DNA of 64,000 bases. It comes from Patescibacteria group bacterium. GTDB lineage: Bacteria > Patescibacteriota > Minisyncoccia > Phycocordibacterales > PALSA-1337. The notes under the pieces were generated by a model, which saw only the letters and a program-made list of their open reading frames with translations, ran no database searches and was not told where the DNA came from. Shown here one piece after another: positions 12,755-43,984 of this stretch. Numbering within the stretch: the first letter of the stretch is position 1; each line of letters begins with the position of its first letter. The position numbers and the translations under genes are program-made. Where the stretch lies: the NCBI GenBank assembly GCA_038065415.1, contig JBBTRA010000002.1, positions 13,646-77,645 of the forward strand. The letters run 5' to 3'.

Positions 12755-12766
12755 CGAGCATACAAC

Positions 12767-12797
12767 CCGCTGATTCTATCAGCGGTTTTTTATTTTT
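12767..12797 (+). terminator. Rho-independent terminator (CCGCTGA-ttcta-TCAGCGG + T-run)
   Basis: Perfect 7-bp stem followed by TTTTTTATTTTTT, 13 nt after ARH stop; overlaps stop of convergent GT4 gene. Confidence 0.65.
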
Positions 12798-13935
12798 TCA
12801 CAACCTTCCCAAAAATCCCTTCCAAACCTTTAAGGTGGCCTTCCCAGGAGAATTTTTCATGCAGTAATTTTGTCCCACCCGCGACCAACTTCTTACAGAG
12901 CGCCTGATCTGTGAACAGTCTCTCTATTGCCGCGGCAAGCGCAGCATCATCACCGGGCTTCACAAGGAGGCCGGTTTGCTCATGATAGATGGCCTCATTT
13001 GTGCCAGAGATATCTGTGGCGACCACTGGTATCTCAGCCGCAAAGCTGGTGAGTACAGTGTGGGGAAGTCCTTCATAGGTTGAGTTCAGGACATATACAG
13101 AAGAATTCTTACGGACATGCCAAGTCTCCGCGCGTGATACTTTTCCAAGGAATGAGATGTTGTTTTCGACACCGAGATCCTGGGTGAGCTTTTTGAGGTT
13201 TTCGGTCTCTGGTCCATCGCCGGCAATGACTGCGCGCACATCAGGGAACCTCTTGCGGACGATGGCCATGGCTCGGATGATGCCGTCGATGCCTTTCCAT
13301 GCGGTGAGGCGAGCGGTGACCGCGATTTGGTGTGCGATAGGAGGTTTTGGTTCGAAAGGAAGCACCTCTGTTTCCTCGGCAGCATTGTAGTTCACGACGC
13401 TGCGCTCACGGCGGACGCCGTAGGCCTTGATGAGTTCCTCGGAGAGATATGCAGACGGTGTGGTCACACATGCTGCACGACGGAGCACCCAACCTTGGAC
13501 GCGCATCATCGCGCGAATCTTCCAGTCACCCTCAGGATTCGTGAGGAACTCCTCGAGGCGTTTCTTGGTGAGGCGTCTTTGAGTTGCGCGTTCCCATGCT
13601 TCGTCACCCACGAACTTGAGTACGAATGGTGTTCGCAATACGCTACAGACGATCGCTGTCGGTAGACCTGCAGCCATCGCATTTTGCACATATACGAGGT
13701 CTGCACCGCGAGCAGCTTTGAGCAAGGTGAGGAGATACAGAGGAAGGCGAACAGGCAGCGGCTTACGCTTGCTCACGGGCATCAGCTTTGTTCCCTCAAA
13801 AGCCGTGCCAACATCCGTGTATGCGACAACTGTTATGTCGTGGGTGCCATGGAGTCGCTCGCAAAGCTCTTTGGTATAGGTGGCTGGACCGCCGATTTCA
13901 GGAGGGTATATAGGAGTTGCTATGACGATCTTCAT
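12790..13935 (-). CDS. Glycosyltransferase family 4
   Basis: Start at Met10 (revcomp ATG 13933-13935): MKIVIATPIYPPEIGGPATYT…; …EGLPHTVLTSFAAEIPVVATDISGTNEAIYHEQTGLLV…. Confidence 0.7.
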   Translation of the reverse strand: MKIVIATPIYPPEIGGPATYTKELCERLHGTHDITVVAYTDVGTAFEGTKLMPVSKRKPLPVRLPLYLLTLLKAARGADLVYVQNAMAAGLPTAIVCSVLRTPFVLKFVGDEAWERATQRRLTKKRLEEFLTNPEGDWKIRAMMRVQGWVLRRAACVTTPSAYLSEELIKAYGVRRERSVVNYNAAEETEVLPFEPKPPIAHQIAVTARLTAWKGIDGIIRAMAIVRKRFPDVRAVIAGDGPETENLKKLTQDLGVENNISFLGKVSRAETWHVRKNSSVYVLNSTYEGLPHTVLTSFAAEIPVVATDISGTNEAIYHEQTGLLVKPGDDAALAAAIERLFTDQALCKKLVAGGTKLLHEKFSWEGHLKGLEGIFGKVVKK

Positions 13936-13969
13936 GCAAGTAAAGTAACACAAAAACAGCAAATAGTGT

Positions 13970-14845
13970 ATGATACTTCGTACCTATATGAGTGCTTCTC
14001 TCTCGCCCAAGCCACGCATCGGATTTATCGGTCAGGGATTTATTGGCAAGAATTATGCCGATGACTTCGAAGTTCGCGGGTATTCTGTGACCCGGTATGC
14101 AGCAGAACCTGCATATGTCGGCAACAAGGATGTAATCAAGGAATGCGACATTGTATTCATAGCTGTCCCCACTCCGACGACCCTGAAAGGGTTTGATGAC
14201 CACATAGTGCGAGAGGTCGTGAAGCTAGTCGGCAAAGGTAAAATTGCAGTGATCAAGTCGACACTCATTCCGGGAACAACAGTTTCGATACAAAAAGAGA
14301 ATCCCGATATATTTGTTTTTCATTCACCAGAGTTCCTTACGGAGGCTACTGCATCGAAGGATGCTGCTCATCCTCTGCGCAATATTGTCGGCGCACCTAT
14401 TGATTCTAGCGAGTACAAAAATAAGGCACAGGAGGTCATCGCGATCTTGCCGAAGGCGCCCTATGAGCTTGTCTGCTCTTCGCAGGAGGCCGAGCTCATC
14501 AAGTATGGCGGCAACTGCTTCCTCTATACGAAAATCGTGTATATGAATATGCTTTATGACTATGCAGCATCGCTCGGGTGCAATTGGGATGTGATTTCTG
14601 AGGCGATGGTGCACGATCCGCGTATCGGTGTAAGTCATATGAAGCCGCACCACGCATCAGGTCGGGGTGCGGGAGGTAATTGCTTCATCAAGGATTTCGA
14701 GGCGTTCATCGAGGGGTATAAGAAGAATAATCCACATGATATTGCGGGTATCGAAGCACTGGAAGGATTCAAGAACAAGAATTATGATTTACTGAAATCA
14801 TCAGGGAAAGATCTCAATCTGCTCAAAGAGGTAACGGGGGAATGA
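13970..14845 (+). CDS. UDP-glucose/GDP-mannose dehydrogenase-family protein, short form (291 aa; lacks most of C-terminal UDP-binding domain)
   Basis: RIGFIGQGFIGKNYADDF (Rossmann), CDIVFIAVPTPT, HSPEFLTEATASKDAAHPLRNIVG, catalytic-Cys motif GGNCFIKDFEAF (cf. UGDH GGSCFPKD). Paralog of 20178..21071. Confidence 0.55.
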   Translation: MILRTYMSASLSPKPRIGFIGQGFIGKNYADDFEVRGYSVTRYAAEPAYVGNKDVIKECDIVFIAVPTPTTLKGFDDHIVREVVKLVGKGKIAVIKSTLIPGTTVSIQKENPDIFVFHSPEFLTEATASKDAAHPLRNIVGAPIDSSEYKNKAQEVIAILPKAPYELVCSSQEAELIKYGGNCFLYTKIVYMNMLYDYAASLGCNWDVISEAMVHDPRIGVSHMKPHHASGRGAGGNCFIKDFEAFIEGYKKNNPHDIAGIEALEGFKNKNYDLLKSSGKDLNLLKEVTGE

Positions 14846-14850
14846 AAAAA

Positions 14851-14879
14851 GCGGCGCAGGAATCAGATTCCTGCGCCGC
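14851..14879. terminator. Terminator hairpin between convergent genes (GCGGCGCAGGAAT-cag-ATTCCTGCGCCGC)
   Basis: Perfect 13-bp inverted repeat; A-run upstream gives T-run for the minus-strand transcript. Confidence 0.6.
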
Positions 14880-14899
14880 TGTCAGTGTGGGTGACTGCC

Positions 14900-15691
14900 T
14901 CAGTCTTTTGTCCGAATTTTGATCTTGAATGATCCCGGAACTGACTTTTCGGATATAACAAAGAGGTAGCCTCCACCACATCCAGAGTACATCGCACCCA
15001 GACTGTGCCTCTGGTATGTTTTGAGGATACCTTTGAGGTCTGTCTTTATCGTACGATGCCGGATCGTTGCGGGGAGAATCGTCTCCCAGCATTCCATGCA
15101 CTCATTGAACGACCTTCCAAGTTTGCGGGGGTCCATCTCCGTAATTGCTCGGAAACAATCTGTGCCGCTTTGCCCGAGTCGTGCGATCCATTCTGGATCG
15201 AGATGTTTGATTCCGAGAGGATCGTATCCGGGTGGTCGTGGTGCGATAGGTAAAACATGCAGTACCTCCTCGAGCCAGTGAGCGTGAGCGGCGTCAGTAA
15301 TCGATGCTATATTCGTGGGGAATACACCTCGATGTGAACTGTAATTGTAGTCAAGCCGATTGATCCCTGGATACAATAGGCCGATCATGTCTTGGGAACC
15401 GCTCGGAGCGGACTTACCTTTGTTCTCTGCAACATAGAGCTCGCGAACGAGGGATTCTCGTGGCCGCCAGGGGAGACCATCTGGCCAGAGTTTGATGGCT
15501 GTGGAGCGTGTGCTTCCTGCGAGACCCGAGCGCTCCATGGGCAGGAAGTCAGGTTCGATCTGGGCGACAACCATTGATCCGAAGGGTTGTGTATTGAGTT
15601 TTGACACAAACGGCTGGTCAATCCATCCTCCGGCGAGGGCGATCCGATGCGGCATTGAGCCGATGATCGGTGTGATGGGATATTTCTTCAT
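14900..15691 (-). CDS. GHMP-kinase-family protein (short, 263 aa; sugar/sugar-phosphate kinase candidate)
   Basis: …RSGLAGSTRS… (GHMP motif-II-like) and C-terminal …SGCGGGYLFV… (motif III); lone minus-strand gene among plus-strand glycan genes. Confidence 0.45.
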   Translation of the reverse strand: MKKYPITPIIGSMPHRIALAGGWIDQPFVSKLNTQPFGSMVVAQIEPDFLPMERSGLAGSTRSTAIKLWPDGLPWRPRESLVRELYVAENKGKSAPSGSQDMIGLLYPGINRLDYNYSSHRGVFPTNIASITDAAHAHWLEEVLHVLPIAPRPPGYDPLGIKHLDPEWIARLGQSGTDCFRAITEMDPRKLGRSFNECMECWETILPATIRHRTIKTDLKGILKTYQRHSLGAMYSGCGGGYLFVISEKSVPGSFKIKIRTKD

Positions 15692-15794
15692 ATGAGGTGA
15701 GCAGGGCTTCTCTGGAGCCTACGCTAGCACGACGGAGCGGCCTCAGACAATGCCGCCGTACACAAAAAATCGAAATAGTGTACTATTACATGAT

Positions 15795-16814
15795 ATGAGA
15801 ATCCTCATTGCTTCAGGTATATATCCACCAGATATCGGCGGGGCGGCGCAGTATGCCCGCAATCTCTATGAGGCGTGGAAGTCTTCGGGCAACGACGTCA
15901 AAGTTGCCGCCTACCGTTGGGAGCGCGCATTCCCGCCACTGGTGCGTCACATACTCTTTTTCCTCAAGATTATCCGTAAGGGTTGGAACGCCGACCTCAT
16001 CCTTATTCTCGATACCTGGAGTGCTGCTGTTCCGGCGATGTATGCATGCAAGCTCATGCGCAAGAAGTATCTCATTCGCACCGGAGGAGACTTCTTATGG
16101 GAGAGCTATACTGAGCGAACTGGCGATCTGGTTTTGTTCAGGGATTTTTATTCAACAAGCATGAGCAAGCTCTCAACCAAAGAGAAGCTGGTGTTCAAAC
16201 TTGGAGGTGATGCTCTGCGCGGTGCAGCAAAAATCATATTCAGTACTTCGTGGCAAAAAGAAATATTCGAAAAAGCATATACTCTCGACTCGCACAAGAG
16301 CGTCATTATCGAGAATTATTGTGGCGAACGTGAGCCTACGGTAGAGCCAGAAAATCGTATGTTCGTTGCTGGTACTCGTCCGCTCAAATGGAAGAATGTG
16401 GAGTTCCTCAAAGAGTGTTTTACTGAAGCCAGTGACGCATTGCAGAAGCTTGGTCTCGAACCTATAGAGCTCGATTGTGGAAAGGCGGTGTATGACAGCT
16501 TCCTGGAGAAGATTCATCGTTCCTATGCCGTGATCCTGGTGTCTCTGGGTGATATCAGTCCAAATATGATCTTTGACGCAGTAAAATGTGGCACGCCGTT
16601 CATCGTCACGCAGGAAATCGGTATCCGCCATCGTATCGAGGATGCCGCACTCTTTGTGGATCCGAAAAATAAGAAGGATATCGTGGACAAGATCATATGG
16701 CTCGCAGATCCGAAGAATAGGGCGATACAAGCGGGGAAAGTGAGAGGTTTGTCATTTACCCATTCCTGGGCTCAGATAGGTAGTGAGATTGTCGAGGTGT
16801 GGAAGAGTTTGTAA
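15795..16814 (+). CDS. Glycosyltransferase (GT-B fold, GT4-like)
   Basis: Start at internal Met (ATG 15795): MRILIASGIYPPDIGGAAQYARNLYEAW (same N-terminal pattern as 12790 gene). Confidence 0.6.
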   Translation: MRILIASGIYPPDIGGAAQYARNLYEAWKSSGNDVKVAAYRWERAFPPLVRHILFFLKIIRKGWNADLILILDTWSAAVPAMYACKLMRKKYLIRTGGDFLWESYTERTGDLVLFRDFYSTSMSKLSTKEKLVFKLGGDALRGAAKIIFSTSWQKEIFEKAYTLDSHKSVIIENYCGEREPTVEPENRMFVAGTRPLKWKNVEFLKECFTEASDALQKLGLEPIELDCGKAVYDSFLEKIHRSYAVILVSLGDISPNMIFDAVKCGTPFIVTQEIGIRHRIEDAALFVDPKNKKDIVDKIIWLADPKNRAIQAGKVRGLSFTHSWAQIGSEIVEVWKSL

Positions 16815-16818
16815 GATC

Positions 16819-17835
16819 ATGCAGCAGAAGAAATTACTCATGATAAGCACGGACCGTAAGATCTTCCAAGAAGGGAGTGCTGTCAGAGCGCGTCAGGCTG
16901 AATATGCAAAAGGATGGGCAGAGGTGCACATACTGGTTTTCGATGACGCGCGGAGTTTGAATGGGGAAACAGTCATCGCACCAAATTGTTGGGCGTATCC
17001 CATACAGTCCCGAGCCAAAATTCTGCACCCATTTGGCACGATGAAGCTCGGGAAATTCCTTGTTGTGAAGAGAGGAATCACAGATGTTACATGTCAGGAT
17101 CCGTTTTTGACGGCTATGGCAGGCATCGGGCTCAAGAAGGATTTTCCACAGGTGCGCCTAGAGATGCAGGTACACAGTGATATTGGTAGTACCTACTTCA
17201 CATACTCCTTCGGCAATAAGATCAGGAAATCTCTCGCATTGAGCTATCTCCCAAAGGCTGATCATGTGCGTGTCGTTTCGGGCAAGATTAGGGATTTCCT
17301 TGTCGAGAAACTAGGGACTCCAGATTCGAAGATTGAAGTCAGGCCGATATTTGTGGATACGGAGAAAATCAAGACTGCACCGGTCATCGAAACCGCGGAT
17401 CTCCGCAAGAAATATCCTCAGTTCGGAAAGATCGTACTGGTAGCCTCACGTCTTGAAAAAGAGAAGAATGTCGCTTTGGCTATAAGCTCATGGAAAAAGA
17501 TCACCGAGAAGGCGCCGAGTGCTGGCTTGGTTATTGTGGGTTCTGGGTCAGAGCTGGCGACCTTGAAAAGCATGGTCACGGATCTAGGACTAAATACCAC
17601 CGTTGTCTTCGAAGGTTGGGCTGATCAGGCTACACTGTATTCGTACTACAAGACTGTTGATGTTTTCGTGAATACGTCCCTCTTCGAAGGGTATGGCATG
17701 ACGCTTGTCGAAGCTCATGCGGCTGGATGTCCGATCGTATCGACGGATGTTGGTGTCGCCAAAGAAGTCGGTGCTATCATAGCTGCGTGGGATGAATCAG
17801 ATGTTGCGGACAAAGTCGCTTCAGTCCTCGTATAA
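16819..17835 (+). CDS. Glycosyltransferase family 4
   Basis: Start MQQKKLLMIST… (ATG 16819, 4 nt after previous stop); …EGYGMTLVEAHAAGCPIVSTDVGVAKEV…. Confidence 0.65.
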   Translation: MQQKKLLMISTDRKIFQEGSAVRARQAEYAKGWAEVHILVFDDARSLNGETVIAPNCWAYPIQSRAKILHPFGTMKLGKFLVVKRGITDVTCQDPFLTAMAGIGLKKDFPQVRLEMQVHSDIGSTYFTYSFGNKIRKSLALSYLPKADHVRVVSGKIRDFLVEKLGTPDSKIEVRPIFVDTEKIKTAPVIETADLRKKYPQFGKIVLVASRLEKEKNVALAISSWKKITEKAPSAGLVIVGSGSELATLKSMVTDLGLNTTVVFEGWADQATLYSYYKTVDVFVNTSLFEGYGMTLVEAHAAGCPIVSTDVGVAKEVGAIIAAWDESDVADKVASVLV

Positions 17836-17847
17836 TACATATTCACT

Positions 17848-18291
17848 ATGATGGAAAAGATAGCAACTACATATACCAACCTCGGAACCGCGTATCCGTT
17901 CTGGTTCAAATTGGGGCGCTTTTGTATATCTGGGGGCGCGGGAGCAGCCATTAATATCGGTATTCTTTTTCTGCTCACGCATATTTTCAGTGTCTGGTAT
18001 CTGCTCTCGTCGGTTATTGCTTTCCTCATATCATTTTGCGCAAGCTTCATATTCCAGAAATTCTGGACTTTTGGTGATACCAAGACTGAACGACTTCACG
18101 TACAAGCGGGATGGTATCTCATTGTTGCTGTGGTTAATCTCGCACTTAACATCTCAATCATGTATGCATTGGTTGAATGGGCCGGGTTCCACTATATCGG
18201 CGCACAGCTCATCTCAAGTGCGACCATAGCACTTGAGAGTTATTTCGCGTATCAGGCAATATTCAAAGCATCTCAGCAAGTCCGCTCGTAG
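17848..18291 (+). CDS. GtrA-family membrane protein (polysaccharide-synthesis associated; putative lipid-linked sugar translocation)
   Basis: 147 aa, four TM helices, …FWFKLGRFCISGGAGAAINIGILFLLTHIFS…. Confidence 0.65.
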   Translation: MMEKIATTYTNLGTAYPFWFKLGRFCISGGAGAAINIGILFLLTHIFSVWYLLSSVIAFLISFCASFIFQKFWTFGDTKTERLHVQAGWYLIVAVVNLALNISIMYALVEWAGFHYIGAQLISSATIALESYFAYQAIFKASQQVRS

Positions 18292-18328
18292 GCTCGCTTT
18301 TGAGTCCGCATATGATATCCTTACCGGC

Positions 18329-19027
18329 ATGAAACTTTCCATAGTCATCCCTGCGTATAACGAAGAAAAGACAGTCGAAAAGATCCTGGCTGCGGTCGAT
18401 GCGGTCGTATTGCCAGGAGGTATAACCAAGGAGATTATCGTCGTTGATGATTGTTCCAAGGACAAAACATTTGAGGTGCTCCAGAGTCTCCAGAAGAGGT
18501 ACAACCTTATTTTGTCCCGTCATGCCATCAACCAGGGTAAGGGTGCTTCAGTTACCGATGGTATACGTATTTCGACGGGTGATGTAGTGGTTATACAAGA
18601 TGCTGATCTTGAATACGACCCGAAGGAGTTTTCACTTCTCTTGGAGCCGATACTTGCAGGCGATGCTGATGTGGTCTACGGTTCGCGCTTCATCAGCAAT
18701 CGTCCGCACCGCGTGCTCTATTTCTGGCACTCTATGGGCAATAAGTTTTTGACCCTGTTCTCCAACATCTTCACTGATCTCAATATCACCGATATGGAGA
18801 CCTGCTACAAAATGTTCACGAGGAAAGTCGTTGATGATATCAAGGACAAGTTGGTCTCCAAGAGATTTGGCATCGAGCCGGAGATTACGGCACGGGTCAA
18901 GAGATATCGTATATACGAAGTAGGTATTTCATACAAAGGCAGAACGTACGCTGAAGGCAAGAAAATCGGCTGGAAGGATGGATTCTCTGCGCTCTGGTGC
19001 ATCATCCGCTTCAATCTATTCGCATGA
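18329..19027 (+). CDS. Glycosyltransferase family 2, polyprenyl-phosphate sugar synthase-like (GtrB/DPM1-like)
   Basis: Start at internal Met (ATG 18329): MKLSIVIPAYNEEKTVEKIL…VVVDDCSKDKTFEV…VIQDADLEYDP… (DxD). Confidence 0.75.
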   Translation: MKLSIVIPAYNEEKTVEKILAAVDAVVLPGGITKEIIVVDDCSKDKTFEVLQSLQKRYNLILSRHAINQGKGASVTDGIRISTGDVVVIQDADLEYDPKEFSLLLEPILAGDADVVYGSRFISNRPHRVLYFWHSMGNKFLTLFSNIFTDLNITDMETCYKMFTRKVVDDIKDKLVSKRFGIEPEITARVKRYRIYEVGISYKGRTYAEGKKIGWKDGFSALWCIIRFNLFA

Positions 19028-20145
19028 CTTCATTTTTGAAGGCTCATTGGCATTGGTGTGCGATTGCGCTGACAATGCTCGCATCGATGGCACTTGTCTT
19101 CTCAGTCAATGGTTTTTTTGATACACGTATAGACGCGCGTATCTATGCCGCGCAAATATCTTCATTTGAGAGTGGTGATGTATTTTCGGGTGACCCACAT
19201 GTGATCATGCGCCTCTTCAAACCGCTCTACGGCATCATTGGTGGGTGGATATTCCAGTCGACACATCCTTATGGCATGATCCTGGGGCTCAATATATTTT
19301 TTTACGCCATTCTCGCTTTTTTCGCGTATCGTATCTTCAAAGCACTTGATTTCTCTGAAAGAGAATCGGTCGTCGGAACACTCTGGATAGTCACCGCATA
19401 TCCTGTCCTCAAATATGGTCTTGCACTGGGTACCGACATGTCGGGCTGGGCCTTGGCGGCAGTAACGGTGGCTATTGGTCTCGTTGCGATCAAGAAAGAT
19501 TCAAATTTTTTGTTGGCACTTGCTTCGGTTGCTGGATTTCTAGGAGCGGCAACAAAAGAGACGGGCCCGCTCGGACTGGGTGCGATCGGATTGTTGGTCG
19601 TGTGGACATATAGGAAACAGGGGATCAAGATTCTTGCTACTCGGTTGGCATCCGTATGTCTGCCATTCATTATTTTGTATGGAGTATTGTTTGCTACTAT
19701 TTCAGGCAGTGCCCCTACACTCTTCGACTGGTTCAATGCCAATACAACAGAGTATAGCGGCAAAGGCACGTATTCTGTAATCAAACTTGTCGCTGTTGCA
19801 GGCTCTACATTTGGTCTGTACTGGCTTGGTGTTGTGTATGCGATACGCATGATGATACGGGAACGACGAATGTTCGATCACATCGGCTATATTGTCGGGG
19901 CATTGATTGCTACTCTGCCGATACTTATGTGGCCGCTGTTTATTTCGAGAATAGTGTTCATACAATTTTTGTGGGTCATGCCACTTGCGCTCTACGGCTA
20001 TCGGGTGATGTCTGGTCGTATTCAGAGCAGGTATCCTGAAAAAGGAAAGATCATCATGATATTCGTTGCACTCGTTCCTATCGTGTTTAGTGCAGCGCTT
20101 TTCTTGGTTGGCGCGCGAGGCTCGCTCTTTACTTTGATGCATTGA
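19024..20145 (+). CDS. Polytopic membrane protein, putative GT-C-fold glycosyltransferase (third component of GtrA/GtrB module)
   Basis: ATGA overlap with preceding gene; ≥9 hydrophobic helices; first loop …DTRIDARIYAAQISSF… resembles the DExRY-type motif of ArnT/PMT-like GT-C enzymes. Confidence 0.45.
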   Translation: MTSFLKAHWHWCAIALTMLASMALVFSVNGFFDTRIDARIYAAQISSFESGDVFSGDPHVIMRLFKPLYGIIGGWIFQSTHPYGMILGLNIFFYAILAFFAYRIFKALDFSERESVVGTLWIVTAYPVLKYGLALGTDMSGWALAAVTVAIGLVAIKKDSNFLLALASVAGFLGAATKETGPLGLGAIGLLVVWTYRKQGIKILATRLASVCLPFIILYGVLFATISGSAPTLFDWFNANTTEYSGKGTYSVIKLVAVAGSTFGLYWLGVVYAIRMMIRERRMFDHIGYIVGALIATLPILMWPLFISRIVFIQFLWVMPLALYGYRVMSGRIQSRYPEKGKIIMIFVALVPIVFSAALFLVGARGSLFTLMH

Positions 20146-20177
20146 AAAAGGGCCGAAATTGGCTATAATGAGCCTCT

Positions 20178-21071: not shown

Positions 21072-21072
21072 T

Positions 21073-26362: not shown

Positions 26363-26365
26363 ATA

Positions 26366-28270: not shown

Positions 28271-28271
28271 G

Positions 28272-30703: not shown

Positions 30704-30704
30704 A

Positions 30705-32255: not shown

Positions 32256-32264
32256 ATGTGTGAG

Positions 32265-33221: not shown

Positions 33222-33234
33222 GAGATAGTTTGAT

Positions 33235-34754: not shown

Positions 34755-34764
34755 TTGGGGCGGC

Positions 34765-35769: not shown

Positions 35770-35770
35770 A

Positions 35771-36835: not shown

Positions 36836-37617
36836 AGATAGCTGGTTATTAATACGGGCTCACCAAGACCTGGAACATTCATCGAACTGATGGTTTCACT
36901 CGCTGCAACGTCGAGACCGTATTTCTTGAAGAGGTCGAATAGTTCAGACTCATTGAAGAATATCTCGAACATTGGCAGGCCATAGCCGATCTTTTCTGCA
37001 TAGGTTGTCGATGTCGATCTCACGACTGGCGTGCGGTGAAATAATGCATACTGCGTAGCGACGCGAGCGGTCTCGGCAATAGCCTTCTCGTAATCGATAA
37101 TATGGAGTATACAGCAGCCTGATATGGCGATATCGAAAGATGTATCAGGATATCCGAGTTTTGTAGCGTCTTCAGTCCGAAATGATATACCCGGATGCAG
37201 TTCTTTTGCTTTTGCTACAAAAGCCTCTGAATAATCACATCCTTCATATGAGACCTCGAGTCCTGCGTCTTTGAATACATCTGCGTAATATCCTGTCGAG
37301 CAGCCAATTTCGAGGATGGTCGGCTTGGTCAAATGTGTTGCACGGATAAGTTTAACTGCAGCTTCATAGACAGGTGCGCTTTTAGGGGATCGAGCGTTAA
37401 CTTTGAGCTGTTGGGCAGGAATAGATGAATCCTTCCAGATATCCTCATATTTTCTTTTAAGTTCTGCGAGATTTGGATTTTTCAGAATACTATAGTGGCC
37501 CGAAGCTTTTTCTGTGCGAGGACGCAGAGTATACAAACACTTTTTAGCGAATGACCAAAGTGGCGTTGGTATGACGGACTTCAGATTGCGGAGCTTGTTT
37601 TTTAGAGTATTCTTCAT
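36820..37617 (-). CDS. Class I SAM-dependent methyltransferase
   Basis: …ILEIGCSTGYYADVFKDAGLEVSYEGCDYSE…FDIAISGCCILHI…. Confidence 0.65.
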   Translation of the reverse strand: MKNTLKNKLRNLKSVIPTPLWSFAKKCLYTLRPRTEKASGHYSILKNPNLAELKRKYEDIWKDSSIPAQQLKVNARSPKSAPVYEAAVKLIRATHLTKPTILEIGCSTGYYADVFKDAGLEVSYEGCDYSEAFVAKAKELHPGISFRTEDATKLGYPDTSFDIAISGCCILHIIDYEKAIAETARVATQYALFHRTPVVRSTSTTYAEKIGYGLPMFEIFFNESELFDLFKKYGLDVAASETISSMNVPGLGEPVLITSYLCKKS

Positions 37618-37623
37618 GTCAGT

Positions 37624-38340
37624 TTATTTCTTTGCCACGATAATATTATCCATGTAGAGATCATTATTCTTCGGCAGTATCCGGTACAGGATGGATCCGA
37701 TTATTGTTACCGGCGCTATGAGTATGGCATAGCTGAGTAGCTTCAGGTAGTAGTTCTTGAAAGGGAGCGACTTGTGGATATAGCAGGCGATAAGCTGGAA
37801 TATCACGCGAATATCGTTGAGGCTTTTTCGGTGCTCGATAATCGTGAAGCCATGTTCTTTGAGGAGATGTGCAACGCCAAATGAAGAATACCGCGCATAG
37901 TCGTAAGGTTGGGAGTGCTCGTCCCAGACGAACGGCACGCTCATGAGTATGCTGCCGCCCTTCTTGAGGGTGCGGTTGATTTCTGTAAGGAATTCGTCGG
38001 GATTGAAGACGTGTTCAAGCACTTGAGTGAATATGATGCCGTCAAAGGTTTCGTCTGCAAAAGGGAACTTCTTAGTGTCGTAGAACACATCTATCTGCTT
38101 GATCTTCCTATTCTCCGGAGAGTCGTAGTCCATGCCGATATATTCGGTTGCGTGCGTGAAAAGCTTCTCATAGGGCTTGGTGCCGCAGCCGACATCCAGA
38201 ACTTTGCCGGTGATGTGGCTGCTCAACTCCTTCATATTCTGGTGCAAGGCGCGGCGCACGAAATAGAATGGGTTGAAGACCATGCCGAGGAGCTTCGGGT
38301 TGTATTTCTGCGACTGAATTTTTTGGAAAAATTTCGACAT
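37624..38340 (-). CDS. Class I SAM-dependent methyltransferase (paralog of 39259..40035)
   Basis: Start at Met36 (revcomp ATG 38338-38340): MSKFFQKIQ…FNPFYFVRRAL…VLDVGCGTKPYEKLF…. Confidence 0.6.
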   Translation of the reverse strand: MSKFFQKIQSQKYNPKLLGMVFNPFYFVRRALHQNMKELSSHITGKVLDVGCGTKPYEKLFTHATEYIGMDYDSPENRKIKQIDVFYDTKKFPFADETFDGIIFTQVLEHVFNPDEFLTEINRTLKKGGSILMSVPFVWDEHSQPYDYARYSSFGVAHLLKEHGFTIIEHRKSLNDIRVIFQLIACYIHKSLPFKNYYLKLLSYAILIAPVTIIGSILYRILPKNNDLYMDNIIVAKK

Positions 38341-38362
38341 GCGAGTGTAGGTTTGAGCAGGC

Positions 38363-39262
38363 TTATGAGCGGATCTTATTGATAATTCGACGGATGATGC
38401 TCGGTTTTTTTGGTCGGAGATAGTCGGCGAACAGTGCGCGTGCACGAGAGTCTTCTTGGAGCGGGATCCGTTCGGCCCGGATCTTCCGGTCAGATAGCGT
38501 ACTGCGGTATTTCAGTGTCTTCTTGGAGTGTGTACCGGTCGTGTCATGACCGATGTTATCGACGAGCGATATGCCCGGATAGAGCGTGAGTTTTGCTGCT
38601 AGAAATGAGGAGGCGTGCCAGCGTACTGCCCAGGAATTGTTTGTGCCGGCAATCTGACCTTTCAACATATCAGTGAAAGGGTACGATCCATCGAGATCGA
38701 ATGCTTGTGTCAGATTTTGTTCCTCGAGTTGTATCAAGAGGGCCTTACCGTCTGGATTGAATTCGGCCCAGGCTCTCTTCCAAGTAGCCCAGCCCCAGCA
38801 GTCTGCACCTCGCAGAAAGAATGTCTCGGGAAGTTTTTCCTTTACAGCGTAGCTGTACCCGTGGATGCTCGCTACTTTGTTATCGTGTTTGTAGAGGTTG
38901 AGTCCGTCGTTCATATAGGTGAGGAAATATGGTGAAGTGACGAGATCGTCCTCAACGATAATTATCTGCTCGTATGTGTTCACGATCTCGGTGACACCAG
39001 TGATGATTGATTTGGCCAGGCCGTAATTTTCCGCACGCTCTACTATATGCACAGATTTGAAACCTGCAACTGATTTGAGGTATGTGCGAACAGCAGTGAC
39101 TCCTTCCAGTGCCGCTTCATTCTTGGCTCCATCGGCGAAGATGAAAAGATCGCTTTCGGCAGCAAGCATATTCTGCTGCAGAGCTTCAATCGTTTTTTGT
39201 GTATGCTCAGGACGATTGTAGACAAAGAGGGCTATGGGGGCGTAATTTTTCATGGAGTTCAT
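38363..39262 (-). CDS. Glycosyltransferase family 2-like
   Basis: …APIALFVYNRPEHTQKTIEAL…IIVEDDL… (DxD); start MNSMKNY forms ATGA overlap with upstream stop. Confidence 0.6.
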   Translation of the reverse strand: MNSMKNYAPIALFVYNRPEHTQKTIEALQQNMLAAESDLFIFADGAKNEAALEGVTAVRTYLKSVAGFKSVHIVERAENYGLAKSIITGVTEIVNTYEQIIIVEDDLVTSPYFLTYMNDGLNLYKHDNKVASIHGYSYAVKEKLPETFFLRGADCWGWATWKRAWAEFNPDGKALLIQLEEQNLTQAFDLDGSYPFTDMLKGQIAGTNNSWAVRWHASSFLAAKLTLYPGISLVDNIGHDTTGTHSKKTLKYRSTLSDRKIRAERIPLQEDSRARALFADYLRPKKPSIIRRIINKIRS

Positions 39263-40035
39263 ATTTTTCGGGCCGTCACAATATAGTCGAGAGTGATACC
39301 TTTCTTGCTGAAGATACGATCGAACACGAGGCCGATGATCTGTATTGGCGCACATACAATAGCTATGATTATGCGTGAACCAATGAATTTCAACTTATAT
39401 CTGAGGCCTGATAATCCACCACGATCGAGCAGGGAGTTTGTCCAGTCTATAAGGAAGTCAGACATAATCTGTGCACATGTTCCGAAAATACCTGTGGTGT
39501 GCTCGATCTTCTTGATCTCGAAGCCGCATTCCTTGAGTAGCTTCTGGTGTCCGAAGGAGGTGAATCTCTGAAAATCGTAGGGTTTTTCATGTTCGGGCCA
39601 TACAAATGGCATCGATAAAAATAGTGTTCCTCCGGGTTTGAGTACACGATGTATATCCTTGGTCAATTCGGGCAGGTACTCTACATGCTCGAATACCTCA
39701 GAGGCTATAACAATATCGAACTTCTCTGCAGGGAAAGGTATATTTTTACCATCGAAGAAAAGATCAGCATCCATAGCGCCACGATCATGGCCGCTTTCGG
39801 AAACTTCGATGCCGGTATACTCGTTCCCTTTGAAAAGTTGCTCGTAAGGCTTGATGCCGCAACCGACATCAAGGATGGAATTTCCGGGCTTGAGCGTTTT
39901 GGAGAACTCAAAGAATTTTCGGTATAGATGCCTTCGTGTGATAAAAAATGGGTTCAAGAATATTCCGAACCAGCGTGGGTTAAACGCGTGGGCATCCTCA
40001 ATCTGGCGTATTTTGTTTTCTATGAATTTCTTCAT
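39259..40035 (-). CDS. Class I SAM-dependent methyltransferase (paralog of 37624..38340)
   Basis: MKKFIENKIRQIED…FLNPFFITRRHLYRKF…ILDVGCGIKPYEQLF…; ATGA overlap with upstream gene. Confidence 0.6.
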   Translation of the reverse strand: MKKFIENKIRQIEDAHAFNPRWFGIFLNPFFITRRHLYRKFFEFSKTLKPGNSILDVGCGIKPYEQLFKGNEYTGIEVSESGHDRGAMDADLFFDGKNIPFPAEKFDIVIASEVFEHVEYLPELTKDIHRVLKPGGTLFLSMPFVWPEHEKPYDFQRFTSFGHQKLLKECGFEIKKIEHTTGIFGTCAQIMSDFLIDWTNSLLDRGGLSGLRYKLKFIGSRIIIAIVCAPIQIIGLVFDRIFSKKGITLDYIVTARKI

Positions 40036-41141
40036 GATAGATTTTCTTGCAGCATGCTGCATAGTTCTCTCATCCGGTGCTCGTAGGTATGCTCGGTGAG
40101 TGTTCTGTGCTGCCCAGCCTTCGCTATCTGAGCTCGTTCGGACTCGTTCGTAAGATAGTACTGTATTTTTTGTACGAGATCCTCTGGTGAGTCATAGGTG
40201 ACCACTTCTTTTCCTGGCACGAATATATCCCCAATATTCTTTTTGTTATCGACCATAAGGAGGCATCCGACGCCCGTAGCTTCATACATACGCATATTGT
40301 TGGCGTAGTCTCCAGCCACTTTCTTCACATGTCCCGTTATGGTTATTTTGCTATTTCTCAATATGGAGAACATCTCTGAGCCCCATGCTTCGCCGTGATA
40401 ATTTTTCCGTATAGCTGACTCGGCGGGAAGGTTTTCAATCCCATAGCCCCATGCATCAAGCTTTATCGCGTGCGCGACTGCTTCCAAGGTGCGGTTGCGG
40501 TCTGCGTGAATCTGATCATAGCCTCCGATGTGGGTGATGTCATATGTCAACGCTGCTGGCTGTAGATTTTCCAATATAGTCTGATCGAATGCGAGCTTCA
40601 GATAGTAGGATTTTGTACCGTGATTGTGTAGGTACTCCACCTGATTTGGAAGAGAAGAAACTACAAAATCGTAGGGCTTGAAAGCGTCCATGGTTGGCAG
40701 TTTGCTGGCGATCTGGAGTACATAGAGTTTCGTCAGCTTCTTTATACGCATGTTGAATGCGGTATCGAGGTCGCGGGTAATCGAATATATAACATCGGGC
40801 TTATATGCGCGTACTTGGGCCTCGAGTATTTCTTCTTGCCAGCCCCATTTCTTGTGAATCAGGTAGTGCAGCTTTGCTGAAAGCGTAGGAGTTTTTTGCG
40901 GTGAATTTAAGGAGTGTTCCTTTATCCATGCTTTTTGTAGTCTTTCATTGTTCACGATGATCAATTCGACCTCATGTCCCAATAAGGAGAGTGCTCGTAC
41001 ACACGGGAGAGCTGGACCTGAATTTTCTTGTTCGAGAGCCTTTTTCTGCTCGACATACGAAAGCGACGACAGATTCGGATATTTCCGATAGGAATTCTCT
41101 ATATGTTCCTGATAGTCTGTGTCTATGACGAGTATCTTCAT
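40032..41141 (-). CDS. Putative glycosyltransferase (CgeB-like/GT1-like)
   Basis: MKILVIDTDYQEHIENSYRKYPNL…; C-terminal …YEATGVGCLLMVDNKKNIGDIFVPGKEVVTYDSPEDLVQKI…. Confidence 0.45.
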   Translation of the reverse strand: MKILVIDTDYQEHIENSYRKYPNLSSLSYVEQKKALEQENSGPALPCVRALSLLGHEVELIIVNNERLQKAWIKEHSLNSPQKTPTLSAKLHYLIHKKWGWQEEILEAQVRAYKPDVIYSITRDLDTAFNMRIKKLTKLYVLQIASKLPTMDAFKPYDFVVSSLPNQVEYLHNHGTKSYYLKLAFDQTILENLQPAALTYDITHIGGYDQIHADRNRTLEAVAHAIKLDAWGYGIENLPAESAIRKNYHGEAWGSEMFSILRNSKITITGHVKKVAGDYANNMRMYEATGVGCLLMVDNKKNIGDIFVPGKEVVTYDSPEDLVQKIQYYLTNESERAQIAKAGQHRTLTEHTYEHRMRELCSMLQENLS

Positions 41142-41145
41142 GGAT

Positions 41146-41844
41146 TTATTCCTTAGTGAATACAGCTACGTATCCATTTGTTTTACTACGGGGCCATCCG
41201 GTCATTGTCCAGAACCACAGCGAGATACGATTGATGATCGATATACCTGGTAGCGGCCATGAGAATTCGAGTCCTTCGCGACGATTCCAATTGCTGATGA
41301 GATTGACTTGGTGTGCACCCTGCTTTTGTTGCTGCTCGAGGGTGAAATAGTGCATGATCGCCTTGGGTGGGTATGGCTTGATATGGTCGAGTTCATTGTA
41401 GAAACCAGGGTACATGAGAGGGCTTCGTATGATAACGATACCCCCCGGCTTTACCACACGGAAAAGTTCCTCAAGGAGAAGGGTTACTTCGGGATAACTG
41501 AAATGCTCGATGACATGTGCGCAGTGGACGATATCGAACGATGAGTCTGCGTAGGGCATTTTTGTTGCAGATGCTGCTGCAGTCTTGAACCCTTTTTCCG
41601 TGAGTTTTTGTGCGACGGTTGTGTTGACTTCGAGGCACTCGATGTCGAGCTTCTCTTTGGGGTGGATGGTGCGAAGCTTGAGAGGGAAGCGTCCGAGACC
41701 TGCTCCTACCTCGAGATATTTTGTGGGTACGCCTGTAGGAGTGTTTGAAGAGGGTGCCTCTATGGTGTGCACGATCGCATCGAGTGCAGGAGCATCTTCG
41801 CGCTCGACCGACTTCATGTTGTATCTATCTCGAATAGTCATATG
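41146..41844 (-). CDS. Class I SAM-dependent methyltransferase
   Basis: …YLEVGAGLGRFPLKL…FDIVHCAHVIEHFSYPE…VKPGGIVIIRSP…. Confidence 0.6.
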   Translation of the reverse strand, partial: HMTIRDRYNMKSVEREDAPALDAIVHTIEAPSSNTPTGVPTKYLEVGAGLGRFPLKLRTIHPKEKLDIECLEVNTTVAQKLTEKGFKTAAASATKMPYADSSFDIVHCAHVIEHFSYPEVTLLLEELFRVVKPGGIVIIRSPLMYPGFYNELDHIKPYPPKAIMHYFTLEQQQKQGAHQVNLISNWNRREGLEFSWPLPGISIINRISLWFWTMTGWPRSKTNGYVAVFTKE

Positions 41845-41852
41845 ATTGATAG

Positions 41853-43127
41853 TTATTTCCGCTCTACGACACTCCACTTTTGGTCAATGAAGATGGGGCT
41901 ATGTGCGGTCTGCACGCCTGTGCCGTAATAGTCACCTTCATCAACACGGAACACGGCTACATTCTTGACATGGTCTTCACGATTTTCACCTGCATGGAGA
42001 TCCACTGAGACGCCATAGGTCCCTACATTGAGTGGGAACTTCTGGTCGATGCTACAGCGGATGACTCCTTTTTGTGGGAGGGTGGCAAATTGTTCTTTGG
42101 TCAGATTGGTCGAAGCGAGGATGAGTGGTGTACCAGACTCTGCAGTGATGGAGAAAGTTGCGTTCACGTCATTCACAGGAGACCCGTCAGTCGTATATTC
42201 GAAGCAGAGTGTGTATGAGCCTCCTGTCTTGAGTGTGTTGACCTTTTTGCCATTTTCCTCAATGAAGAATGAATCTATCTTCACGCGCCCCGCACCTTTG
42301 CGGTCATGGCGCATGCGGACATCGACACCTTTTTCGCGCACGAGCGGATCCTTGAGATACATGCTGATAATTTCATCAGTGTCTCCTGATGCTTTGACCA
42401 CACCCTTCTCGATGAGGATGCAACGGTTGCAGAGTTTCCTGACAGCTTCCATGTTGTGACTGACGAATAAGATCGTGCGGCCGTCCTCACGGGTGATCTG
42501 ATCCATTTTGCCGAGACATTTCTTCTGGAAATCGGCATCGCCCACAGCGAGCACCTCATCGATGATGAGGATGTCTGGCTCCATGTGTGCTGCCACCGAG
42601 AAGGCGAGGCGTACGTACATACCGCTGGAATAGTATTTTACCGGCGTATCGAGGAATTTTTCGATCTCTGCAAATCTGACGATCGCATCGAACTTGGAGG
42701 CCATCTCTTTTCGGGTCATGCCGAGGATGGCGCCATTCAAGAATATGTTCTCGCGGCCAGTGAGTTCCGGATGGAAGCCGGTTCCGACTTCGAGCAGGCT
42801 GCCGACCTTGCCGTGAAGCGTGATCTCGCCTTCGGTGGGCGAGGTGATCTGGGAGAGGATCTTGAGTAGGGTAGATTTTCCGGCCCCATTGTGACCGATG
42901 ATGCCGACCACTTCACCAGGATTCACTGTGAAGTTGATATCTTTGAGTGCCCAGAAGACCTCTTTCTTGGTGAGCCCTGTCATATCCTTGAATTTCGAGC
43001 CGAGGTAACGCAAGGGATGCTTGAATGCATCGGTGATCACGTCGCGCAGAGCGATATATCCACCACGTTCATGTGTGATCTTGTAGCTCTTGGCGATATT
43101 CTTTACTTCGATGATGGGGGAGGACAT
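41853..43127 (-). CDS. wzt: ABC transporter ATP-binding protein for glycan export (Wzt/TagH-like) with ~170-aa C-terminal extension
   Basis: Walker A GHNGAGKSTLLKIL, signature YSSGMYVRLAFSVA, Walker B ILIIDEVLAVGD, H-loop FVSHNM; residues ~255-424 form an extra β-rich domain. Confidence 0.8.
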   Translation of the reverse strand: MSSPIIEVKNIAKSYKITHERGGYIALRDVITDAFKHPLRYLGSKFKDMTGLTKKEVFWALKDINFTVNPGEVVGIIGHNGAGKSTLLKILSQITSPTEGEITLHGKVGSLLEVGTGFHPELTGRENIFLNGAILGMTRKEMASKFDAIVRFAEIEKFLDTPVKYYSSGMYVRLAFSVAAHMEPDILIIDEVLAVGDADFQKKCLGKMDQITREDGRTILFVSHNMEAVRKLCNRCILIEKGVVKASGDTDEIISMYLKDPLVREKGVDVRMRHDRKGAGRVKIDSFFIEENGKKVNTLKTGGSYTLCFEYTTDGSPVNDVNATFSITAESGTPLILASTNLTKEQFATLPQKGVIRCSIDQKFPLNVGTYGVSVDLHAGENREDHVKNVAVFRVDEGDYYGTGVQTAHSPIFIDQKWSVVERK

Positions 43128-43141
43128 ATATATATAGAATG

Positions 43142-43984
43142 TTAGACGATATCAGCGAAGTACCTCTCGACCTTTTTGAAGACATAGATTCCCACAATGA
43201 GCAGTATGAAGCAGGCGATGAGCGAGATGCCAAGGAGGAGCCAGTTGATCGGCGCGGTACCGAGGAGTGCCGCGCGGGCATTCTGGATGACTCCCATCAT
43301 CGGGTTGATGGCCAAGAATTTCGAATATGCTCCGGCGATCGAGGCGGGGTAGATGACCGGAGTTACGAAGAGGAGGAGCTGAATGAAGAAAGGCAGTGCG
43401 TAACGGACGTCACGGTATTTTACATTGATCGAGGCAAGGATCAGTCCACCGCCAACCGCTGCCATGAAAGTGATGAGAAGGAGAAGCGGTATGAGAAGCA
43501 GGCCGCTGATGTGCGGCGTATATCCATAGTAGAACATCAGGCCGACGAGGATGGCCGCAGCAATGGCAAAATCTACGAGCTTGGTGATGACCGAGGAGAT
43601 GGGGAGTATGAGGCGCGGGAAGTAGACCTTGGTGATGATTGCCTGGTTGCTGATGAGTACATTGCTGGTGTCGCCGAGCGCGCTCGAGAAAAATTGCCAG
43701 AAAATAAGACCGACATAGACGAAGATCGGGTAGGGGACGCCGTCAGAAGGCATCTTGGCTAGTCCTCCGAAGAAGATGGAGAAGACCACCATGGTGATGA
43801 AAGGTTGGAATATTGCCCAGCCTGCACCGATGACAGTCTGCTTGTAGCGGACCTTGAGGTCACGCCAGGTGAAGAAGTAAAGGAGCTCCTTGTAGTTCCA
43901 GAGTTCGCGGAGATCCGAGAAATGGAATATCTTCTTTGGTTTGATAGTCGTGATGATGCTCATGAGAGAAATGTATTCTAGCAC
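43142..43984 (-). CDS. wzm: ABC-2 type transporter permease (Wzm-like)
   Basis: 280 aa, six TM helices; adjacent upstream of Wzt; first gene of minus-strand run. Confidence 0.75.
   Translation of the reverse strand: MLEYISLMSIITTIKPKKIFHFSDLRELWNYKELLYFFTWRDLKVRYKQTVIGAGWAIFQPFITMVVFSIFFGGLAKMPSDGVPYPIFVYVGLIFWQFFSSALGDTSNVLISNQAIITKVYFPRLILPISSVITKLVDFAIAAAILVGLMFYYGYTPHISGLLLIPLLLLITFMAAVGGGLILASINVKYRDVRYALPFFIQLLLFVTPVIYPASIAGAYSKFLAINPMMGVIQNARAALLGTAPINWLLLGISLIACFILLIVGIYVFKKVERYFADIV

Follow-up and report, generated by a model that had tools for sequence, protein, structure and literature searches.

CPR bacteria (candidate phyla radiation, Patescibacteria) are believed to lead a life in attachment to other cells and to have very small genomes that encode little biosynthetic capacity. 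What, then, would such an organism make with some 37 kb of glycan-biosynthesis genes? A stretch of 64,000 nucleotides (the window) from contig JBBTRA010000002.1 of a Patescibacteria genome raises this question. We consider it probable that the region from about 7345 to 44300 is a variable ('flexible') glycan-biosynthesis island of ~37 kb, which builds, methylates and exports a surface sugar polymer. With a probability of roughly 70%, the product is one polyprenol-linked surface glycan, which is made by the ABC-transporter-dependent (Wzm/Wzt) route, decorated outside the membrane and handed to a conserved neighbour, WzyC-TPR. Gene families, folds and gene packing are established by the analysis, as are the host and the island's variability. 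The type of locus is familiar in bacteria; its size and its richness in methyltransferases are unusual for a CPR host.

The host is an uncultivated, ultra-small bacterium from Hainich groundwater, represented by the metagenome-assembled genome (MAG) GCA_964357625.1. In reverse complement, the window corresponds to part of contig CAYHMB010000004.1 (87.6 kb) of this MAG, and identical sequence occurs in contigs from the 0.1-µm filter fraction of Hainich well H41. NCBI labels the proteins of the window 'Patescibacteria group bacterium', and the closest SecA sequences among GTDB species representatives (82–60% identity) all come from CPR MAGs, labelled Paceibacterota, Nomurabacteria, Kaiserbacteria and 'Saccharibacteria'. 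CPR genomes in general have many surface-modification genes (bioRxiv 10.1101/2025.02.25.640227), and in the literature on Wzt or O-antigen-type loci in Patescibacteria we found no description of such a locus.

The exporter and its ligase-family neighbour

To assign gene families, we scanned every open reading frame (ORF) of at least 100 residues in the window with Pfam and complemented this with NCBIfam, PDB and PADLOC searches. The ORF listing contained the genes of the original prediction, made from the sequence alone, at the positions given there; in the following, coordinates are window positions and strands are marked + or −. The predicted exporter is clearly recognized by Pfam: Wzm (43142–43984, −) is an ABC-2 permease (ABC2_membrane, PF01061, E 4e-15) and Wzt (41853–43127, −) combines an ABC nucleotide-binding domain (ABC_tran, PF00005, E 7e-25) with a C-terminal carbohydrate-binding domain (Wzt_C, PF14524, E 1.2e-17, 64.7 bits against a cut-off of 30.4). 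Structures of Wzm/Wzt are known from Aquifex (6amx, 7k2t, 8dku). One of these, the O-antigen Wzt 8dku, is matched with E 3.5e-66 over residues 56–384, a stretch that runs through the carbohydrate-binding domain. This strengthens the reading of the locus as ABC-transporter-dependent.

In two related loci with Wzm and Wzt (L006, L015), Wzm is 73–77% identical to the one studied here. For Wzt, the nucleotide-binding domain is 66–73% identical and the binding domain only 28–29%, the pattern one would predict if the chain ends recognized by these domains differed from one another.

The nucleotide-binding domain also has PDB matches to TarH (E 8e-54) and TagH (E 2e-52), which belong to a different scenario: a teichoic-acid-like or secondary wall polymer that a TagG/TagH-type transporter would export and a LytR-CpsA-Psr enzyme, instead of WzyC-TPR, would link to peptidoglycan. 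The CPR envelope is thought to be Gram-positive-like, and peptidoglycan genes (murB, mraY and mur ligases) flank the region, both of which would suit this scenario. However, TarH and TagH lack the Wzt_C domain, the best matches of our protein are O-antigen Wzt proteins, and the window gave no match to polyol-phosphate transferases of the TagF/TagB type, to genes for CDP-glycerol or CDP-ribitol, or to LytR-CpsA-Psr genes. Moreover, beside the variable locus at least 12 relatives have a conserved Wzy_C enzyme. We regard a wall polymer of this kind as improbable.

The neighbour in question, WzyC-TPR (44957–47170, +), is a polytopic protein of the O-antigen-ligase family with a C-terminal TPR part and lies in the conserved backbone, outside the variable island. 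It matches Wzy_C (PF04932) with E 5e-20 (72.2 bits, cut-off 31.7) as well as TPR families, and has about 11 hydrophobic segments; in PDB sequence searches only its TPR part was matched. In at least 12 related CPR loci, WzyC-TPR is found beside murB–secA.

As had been predicted, no ORF of the window matches a Wzx flippase (PF01943, PF13440) or an initiating transferase of the WecA (PF00953) or WbaP (PF02397) type. With PF14667 likewise unmatched in the window, neither a Wzx flippase nor a Wzy polymerase was found, and the only Wzy_C protein is the ligase-like one with the TPR tail. A gene with PF00953 just left of the window was considered as initiator and rejected, as it encodes MraY (TIGR00445 180 bits, compared to 34 for wecA). 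The contig encodes MraY together with Mur ligases, which indicates that a polyprenyl-phosphate carrier is in use.

Extent and variability of the island

The original prediction had let the island begin at 12790, with an ADP-ribosylglycohydrolase gene as its border. The comparison with relatives corrects this. In one of them (L011), TP-methylase, DUF4015 and TraG-like genes, which correspond to window positions 2044–7342, are followed by WzyC-TPR at a distance of 2 nt from the TraG-like gene; the stretch from 7345 to ~44800 is therefore absent there. The island thus begins near 7345 and includes the ADP-ribosylglycohydrolase-family gene (11756–12754, +; ADP_ribosyl_GH, E 1e-56). The conserved left border is a homologue of TraG/TrwB-like coupling ATPases (5333–7342, 669 residues), which is 70% identical in L011 and has a weak PADLOC match to 'mad8'.

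On the other side, a backbone of WzyC-TPR, murB, secA, (NUDIX), AI-2E, obg and gatB is kept in at least 10 related loci, whereas the gene content at the island site differs between them (L006, L015, L008–L010, L037, L046, L052). In L006 and L015, Wzm/Wzt stand beside WzyC-TPR in other company, with partner genes for a GT2-GtrA fusion, a Methyltransf_23 protein, FkbM methyltransferases and a glycosyltransferase-FkbM fusion. In other relatives, the site holds unrelated genes. Together with the adjacency of the flanks in L011, this answers the question whether the locus is a variable island in the affirmative.

A further comparison is with a more distant genome (GCA_034680565.1, loci L085 and L086), which contains about 20 orthologues with 38–66% identity, in an order that is kept across both of the convergent gene runs described below. 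The shared genes include two from the part of the island added here: the leftmost gene, a GT4 glycosyltransferase (7345–8547, +; Glycos_transf_1, E 1.4e-42; 50% identical to its L085 orthologue), which starts 2 nt after the TraG-like gene, and a GalE-like NAD-dependent sugar epimerase/dehydratase (10638–11648, +; Epimerase, E 2.5e-59; TIGR01179 galE 186 bits, below cut-off; 38% in L085). Missing from the L085/L086 locus are, on the left, a phosphatase of the inositol-monophosphatase family (8573–9346, +; Inositol_P, E 4e-57), the ADP-ribosylglycohydrolase, a GT4 glycosyltransferase at 12790 and a nucleotide-sugar-dehydrogenase-like gene. The genome also lacks the DUF362/PP-loop pair, the genes of the truncated UDP-glucose-dehydrogenase-like proteins (mini-UGDHs), the smaller of two GT-C enzymes and the methyltransferases at 37624 and 39259; in their place are other tailoring genes, namely an acetyltransferase-GtrA fusion, a deacetylase and five methyltransferases. 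The common gene order argues for a single functional pathway, in which accessory modules can be exchanged.

Three proteins of the island have no assigned family: one of 367 residues (9550–10653, −), which has no Pfam, NCBIfam or PADLOC match; one of 263 residues (14900–15691, −), for which Pfam and PADLOC gave no match and NCBIfam a faint one (E 0.005); and one of 275 residues (25535–26362, −), which is the last of the minus-strand run and has a 41% identical counterpart in L085, beside the GT-C gene.

GC content is 0.45–0.52 across island and flanks, with no compositional shift, and a tRNA scan, Pfam and PADLOC found no tRNA, integrase, insertion sequence (IS) element or mobility gene at the borders. 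These signs of a recent horizontal acquisition are thus lacking, and we rejected a mobile element. A defence island was rejected as well: PADLOC gave no match for the island genes without assigned family, and for the TraG-like protein and the HTH protein similarity was limited to generic ATPase and HTH matches.

Some further observations concern the island and its surroundings. The only repeat is an inverted pair of 103 nt (80% complementary, 9398–9500 and 47371–47473, arms 37.9 kb apart), which brackets most of the island and WzyC-TPR; one arm is situated between two convergent genes, and WzyC-TPR and murB enclose the other. As neither an Rfam family nor a significant RNA fold was found, and 87 loci contained no further copy, we rejected an interpretation as RNA. 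In a single-sample assembly of the same population in the European Nucleotide Archive, R1_883 ends and R1_551 starts about 15 nt apart, at window positions ~30954–30969 within the DUF362 gene. Co-assemblies bridge this break, which may reflect strain heterogeneity inside the island. Finally, the region 3' of gatB (56810–64000; L087 from 13392) encodes an HTH_17 protein, two paralogues without assigned family (at 57940 and 59693, 42% identical) and proteins with a WxL-interacting domain and with fn3, respectively. A giant ORF with Peptidase_S74, longer than 3400 residues, begins there as well, and the region resembles a cluster of large surface proteins.

Gene packing and regulation

The core of the island had been described as an uninterrupted run of 18 minus-strand genes, from 43984 down to 25535, that probably form one tightly coupled operon headed by Wzm/Wzt. 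The run is real, with gaps of −50 to +22 nt according to gene-caller starts and our own start analysis; the 12 distal genes are separated by −50 to +13 nt (gene-caller starts), the remainder by at most 22 nt. In consensus scans, signals of internal promoters or terminators, which would have argued for independent units, occur at chance level: compared with shuffled sequences, the run has 24 promoter-like sites where 25.4 are expected and 17 terminator-like sites where 15.6 are expected.

The head of the operon needs to be revised. While wzm and wzt are indeed first among the 18 genes, wzm is preceded on the same strand by a gene for an 82-residue DNA-binding protein of the excisionase/MerR-like type (44013–44261, −; HTH_17, E 5e-12). 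The two best promoter-like sites between 25400 and 45000, both with 11 of 12 matches and a TG, lie back to back at 44270–44297 (−) and 44365–44393 (+). The former reads TTGACA-16-TAGAAT with an upstream TG, and is identified by its match to the consensus only. Because the HTH_17 gene is co-directional with wzm and lies behind this site, the unit is probably headed by the small regulator and not by wzm.

Between the stop of the HTH gene and the start of wzm we noted a perfect 8-bp palindrome, GGTGATCC-N4-GGATCACC (43998–44017), which is not followed by a T-run and could be an operator for the HTH protein. The plus-strand site at 44365–44393 belongs to a small unit between the island and WzyC-TPR, with an ORF of 111–123 residues (44430/44466–44801, no family match in Pfam or PADLOC) and a terminator-like hairpin with an 18-bp stem (44804–44843). 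Almost no island gene is preceded by a recognizable Shine-Dalgarno sequence, and start contexts are A/T-rich.

A second tight run of 11 plus-strand genes (15750–25538) converges on the minus-strand run. The two must therefore be separate transcripts, and with this arises the possibility that they serve two or more glycoconjugates: the minus-strand operon the exported methylated polymer, and 15750–25538 together with 7345–15691 some other product, for instance a second wall polymer, a monosaccharide linked to protein or a glycolipid anchor. The left part is split into small units by strong terminator-like hairpins at 12767–12785, after the ADP-ribosylglycohydrolase gene, and at 14850–14880 (14-bp stem), and a promoter-like site (11/12) is located just 5' of the gene at 20178. 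The absence of the inositol-monophosphatase, the ADP-ribosylglycohydrolase, the GT4 at 12790 and a mini-UGDH from the L085/L086 locus would also fit such a division. Nevertheless, both runs lie side by side in the L085/L086 genome, with conserved order of orthologues, and only one exporter is present. Further, in this genome the polyprenyl-phosphate-sugar GT2 gene has moved into the Wzt-side operon, beside the GT-C gene, which ties the two halves functionally. We thus consider separate products unlikely, although they are the most serious competitor of the single-glycan pathway.

Glycosyltransferases and extracytoplasmic decoration

Of the ~14 glycosyltransferases that had been proposed, we find 13 between 12790 and 43984, three of them with sub-threshold matches; the number reaches 14 only if the GT4 at 7345 is included. 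They comprise five GT4, two Glyco_trans_1_2, two GT2-type, one GT11-like, one GT8-like and two GT-C enzymes. Profile searches thus place the glycosyltransferases, and likewise the methyltransferases discussed below, in the expected families and not in unrelated ones.

The GT4 enzymes are encoded at 12790–13962 (−; Glycos_transf_1, E 3e-40), 15750–16814 (+; first gene of the plus run; GT4-like, with Glyco_transf_4 at 25.6 bits for a cut-off of 28.5; 46% identical in L085), 16783–17835 (+; Glycos_transf_1, E 1e-27), 21007–22164 (+; E 3e-20) and 24396–25538 (+; last gene of the plus run; E 2e-26; 55% in L085). The two GT-B enzymes with Glyco_trans_1_2 are located at 22762–23826 (+; E 1e-7, 32.5 bits, cut-off 25) and 40032–41141 (−; E 1.4e-33); the latter has a 40% identical orthologue in L086, beside Wzt. 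More distant are a GT-A enzyme with weak GT2/GNT-I similarity (38363–39355, −; GNT-I E 4e-5, Glycos_transf_2 E 1.4e-4, both just below cut-off) and a weakly GT11-like protein (32265–33221, −; Glyco_transf_11, E 1.5e-3, below cut-off), whose L085 orthologue (38%) also matches PF01531 weakly. The GT8-like GT-A enzyme (35771–36835, −) has no direct Pfam match and was assigned through its 2836 homologues; PF01501 or PF03407 is present in many of them, with the name 'glycosyl transferase' given in MAGs of Parcubacteria.

Since two polytopic membrane proteins had no family match, we modelled their structures with AlphaFold and compared the models with Foldseek. The larger (26366–28270, −; 634 residues) has about 14 transmembrane helices followed by a C-terminal α/β domain; Asp135 and Asp240 are invariant among its homologues, of which there are only 8 among 5.8e9 proteins, one with PF02366 (PMT). 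Its AF2 model (pLDDT 80, pTM 0.81) retrieved exclusively GT-C enzymes as the top 27 PDB matches, including AglB (E 7e-6), ArnT, STT3, AftA and PglB. The smaller (18997–20145, +; 382 residues) has only 13 homologues, one with PMT_2 and one fused to GtrA, and its model (pLDDT 83, pTM 0.86) matched STT3, PglB, AglB, ArnT and ALG3/9 with TMq 0.5–0.66. According to the models, both proteins have the GT-C fold.

The smaller GT-C gene completes a three-component set, encoded consecutively at 17848–20145, with a GtrA-family small membrane protein, a putative polyprenyl-phosphate-sugar flippase (17848–18291, +; GtrA_DPMS_TM, PF04138, E 2.7e-23), and a GT2 of the polyprenyl-phosphate-sugar-synthase type (18233–19027, +; Glycos_transf_2, E 8e-32). 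In NCBIfam, this GT2 comes closest to AglJ, PgfS, PpgS, Dol-P-hexose transferase and ArnC, without reaching the cut-off of any of these models.

Methyltransferases

All seven genes that had been named as S-adenosylmethionine (SAM) methyltransferases belong to class-I Pfam families, with scores above the gathering thresholds and E-values from 4e-9 to 2e-27. Three match Methyltransf_11, namely 22148–22765 (methyltransferase 1, +; E 4e-9; L085 orthologue 53%), 36820–37617 (4, −; E 5e-15; L085 orthologue 50%) and 41146–41877 (7, −; E 6e-16), which lies directly 3' of wzt. The other four match Methyltransf_23: 23826–24395 (2, +; E 7e-21), 28272–29315 (3, −; 347 residues; E 1.6e-27; L085 orthologue 40%), 37624–38445 (5, −; E 3e-16) and 39259–40062 (6, −; E 2e-18). 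Their mutual identities of 25–37%, the highest value being that between 5 and 6, show that they are not recent duplicates. Methyltransferase 3 has an N-terminal extension of 100 residues. Methyltransferases 3, 5 and 6 have a C-terminal hydrophobic helix (segments at residues 315, 234 and 224, respectively), and these helices in at least three of the enzymes are consistent with work at the membrane.

The ratio of methyltransferases had been called unusually high, and indeed 7 methyltransferases and 13 glycosyltransferases among 32 genes exceed any genome-wide frequency by far. We counted 4 methyltransferase-like ORFs within 10 kb of wzt here, 5 in L085 and 0–2 in 32 metagenomic loci with Wzt relatives; the count, made with phmmer on loci of at least 12 kb and with the methyltransferases of this window as queries, is biased towards their own families, misses FkbM types and gives a rough ranking only. 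No WbdD-type terminator was found, as none of the seven, including the one directly after wzt, matches WbdD or a kinase domain. The original prediction stands as regards the seven enzymes; a 'heavily O-/N-methylated' polysaccharide is what their presence would suggest.

The density of methyltransferases also recalls the mycobacterial loci for polymethylated polysaccharides and glycopeptidolipids. The island could accordingly make an intracellular polymethylated polysaccharide, comparable to methylglucose lipopolysaccharide or methylmannose polysaccharide, or a methylated glycoside natural product, with an ABC transporter that is unrelated or exports a small molecule; an initiating transferase was not found in the window and the inspected flanks. 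Yet Wzm stands at the head of the operon, along with a Wzt that includes the carbohydrate-binding domain. GtrA and the two GT-C enzymes imply that donors linked to lipid are used outside the membrane, the adjacent gene is of the Wzy_C ligase family, and polyketide synthase, nonribosomal peptide synthetase and acyltransferase genes are absent. We consider an intracellular product very improbable.

Sugar-nucleotide enzymes and proteins of uncharacterized families

Five nucleotide-sugar enzymes support the corresponding part of the original prediction. Three of them are encoded by mutually adjacent genes: the dehydratase RmlB (34765–35769, −; GDP_Man_Dehyd and Epimerase; TIGR01181 346.6 bits, cut-off 365), the dTDP-6-deoxy-3,4-keto-hexulose isomerase FdtA/QdtA (34320–34754, −; FdtA, PF05523, E 3e-36; PDB matches FdtA 2pa7, E 5e-27, and QdtA 4zu7, E 2e-21) and a pyridoxal-phosphate-dependent sugar 3-aminotransferase of the FdtB/QdtB/DesV type (33235–34326, −; DegT_DnrJ_EryC1, PF01041, E 4e-120; PDB matches DesV 2oga, E 5e-94, and QdtB 3frk, E 1.5e-93). 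As judged from sequence, this trio is a predicted dTDP-3-amino-3,6-dideoxyhexose branch of the Fuc3N or Qui3N type.

The other two are the mini-UGDHs, 56% identical paralogues of the UDP-glucose/GDP-mannose-dehydrogenase family with 291 and 297 residues. The first (13970–14845, +) has UDPG_MGDP_dh_N and the central domain, covers positions 72–280 of the 413 in TIGR03026 and is followed by the hairpin at 14850–14880; the second (20178–21071, +) was likewise assigned by Pfam. Both keep the NAD-binding Rossmann motif GxGxxG and the catalytic cysteine motif GGNCFIKD, and lack the whole C-terminal nucleotide-sugar-binding domain.

Two neighbouring genes, which overlap by 50–80 nt and are both absent from L085, encode proteins whose PDB sequence searches remained empty. 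One is an asparagine-synthase-like PP-loop ATP-pyrophosphatase without glutaminase domain (29312–30784, −; Asn_synthase, E 1.4e-4, 22.1 bits, cut-off 21). Its family has 647 representatives, the long members of which are fused to Methyltransf_23, Glyco_trans_1_2, GT2 or PGA_cap, and in the island its gene overlaps the start of the gene for methyltransferase 3 by 4 nt. The other is a DUF362 protein of 516 residues (30705–32255, −; E 3.7e-22); DUF362 is in Pfam clan CL0471, together with the LarA racemase family (PMC11770544). A role of the two proteins in sugar amidation or acylation would be plausible.

A pathway for one surface glycan

Taken as one pathway, these components suggest the following course. 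An initiating transferase whose gene lies at another place in the genome would provide a polyprenyl-phosphate primer. At the cytoplasmic face, the chain would be elongated by about 11 soluble transferases of the GT-A and GT-B types, with a dTDP-3-amino-3,6-dideoxyhexose as one of the donors, and up to seven cytoplasmic SAM-dependent methyltransferases would act on the sugars, one methyl group probably being a chain-terminating cap. The finished chain would be recognized by the C-terminal binding domain of Wzt and exported by Wzm/Wzt. Outside the membrane, the two GT-C enzymes may add side residues from a polyprenyl-phosphate sugar that the GT2 makes and GtrA flips, and WzyC-TPR may finally transfer the glycan to a surface protein (S-layer, pilin) or to a lipid or wall anchor. 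We infer the lipid carrier, the order of steps, the methylation targets, the capping logic and the acceptor; for the targets, the cap and the transfer by WzyC-TPR, the model follows better-studied systems.

Four points weigh against this pathway. First, no initiating phosphoglycosyl transferase is encoded in the window, in the ~8 kb of contig to its left or in the right flank to the end of L087; as initiators are often encoded outside Wzm/Wzt loci, this does not disqualify it. Second, the amino-sugar branch lacks both RmlA and an N-acyltransferase of the FdtC/QdtC type, as there is no NTP_transferase or LbH match in the window and the inspected flanks. RmlA may lie elsewhere; as to the amino group, it might stay free, receive a methyl group or have its acyl group added by a different enzyme. 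Third, three glycosyltransferase calls (15750, 32265, 38363) are below Pfam cut-offs. Fourth, in NCBIfam and PDB none of the methyltransferases matches a characterized sugar O- or N-methyltransferase, TylM1/DesVI or WbdD, only generic class-I proteins.

Comparison with known systems

Among the closest parallels are the loci for capped O-polysaccharides, such as E. coli O8/O9a and Klebsiella O3/O5 (WbdA–D). Here as there, Wzm is paired with a Wzt that has a Wzt_C domain, the elongating transferases are all cytoplasmic, there is no Wzx/Wzy polymerase, the initiator lies outside the locus, methyltransferase genes stand beside wzt and, of the two Wzt domains, the one for binding carbohydrate is by far the faster to diverge. 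Unlike in O8/O9a-type loci, no WbdD-like kinase/methyltransferase was detected, there are seven methyltransferases instead of one, GtrA, GT2 and GT-C decoration genes lie inside the locus, and the CPR host is not expected to make lipopolysaccharide.

Wzm/Wzt export and an O-methyl cap in a Gram-positive-type host are also known from clusters for the glycans of S-layer glycoproteins (slg), as in the thermophilic bacilli Geobacillus stearothermophilus NRS 2004/3a and Aneurinibacillus thermoaerophilus L420-91. These also comprise a dTDP-Fuc3N pathway (FdtA, FdtB) and WsaB, an oligosaccharyltransferase of the Wzy_C family that moves the glycan onto protein. The island shares with them a presumed Gram-positive type of host, Wzm/Wzt, FdtA with an FdtB-like aminotransferase and a Wzy_C-family enzyme, but has no FdtC acetyltransferase, no rhamnose genes (rmlA, rmlC, rmlD) and many more methyltransferases. 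Its Wzy_C protein differs in being TPR-tailed and part of a conserved backbone, and no S-layer gene was identified beside the locus.

The combination of a GT2 polyprenyl-phosphate-sugar synthase with a GtrA-type protein and a GT-C enzyme is known from the Group A carbohydrate locus (GacA–L), GtrA/B/C and ArnC/ArnT. The streptococcal Gac locus resembles the island further in having an ABC exporter and cytoplasmic glycosyltransferases. It differs in that the island has two GT-C enzymes of very rare families (8 and 13 homologues) and its load of methyltransferases, and lacks rhamnan genes and a glycerol-phosphate transferase.

As a glycan locus that is replaced at a fixed chromosomal site, the island is comparable to the flexible 'glycotype' islands of free-living aquatic bacteria; in lake bacterioplankton, hypervariability of glycosyltransferase genes has been described as a route of phage evasion (PMC9426551). 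Unlike these islands, it has the GC content of its flanks, no tRNA, integrase or IS element at its borders, and a host from an episymbiont lineage with a very small genome.

Except for the initiator, the defining features of the Wzm/Wzt pathway are thus present, and every module has a well-studied counterpart; the locus reveals no new kind of machinery. A more far-reaching proposal goes beyond this. In it, the core WzyC-TPR would be a general oligosaccharyltransferase that loads strain-specific glycans onto S-layer or pili, with the methyl-rich glycan as the main determinant of host recognition and phage evasion, while the PP-loop protein, as an amide ligase acting with the LarA-clan DUF362 protein on the 3-amino sugar or a uronic acid, and the mini-UGDHs would represent new sugar-tailoring chemistry. 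As a whole, we consider this speculative and rather doubtful.

Conclusions

Most of the interest in this locus stems from its CPR host, and further from its size, its load of methyltransferases, its replacement beside a conserved ligase-family gene and its few unstudied enzymes. It offers candidates in the Wzt binding domains of differing specificity, the seven methyltransferases, the two rare GT-C enzymes and the PP-loop enzyme. If the attached lifestyle with a small genome applies here, ~37 kb for a single surface glycan would be a heavy investment, and the replacement of the locus between relatives, at a fixed site beside a ligase-family gene, suggests strong diversifying selection on the glycan coat, be it by phages or by host recognition.

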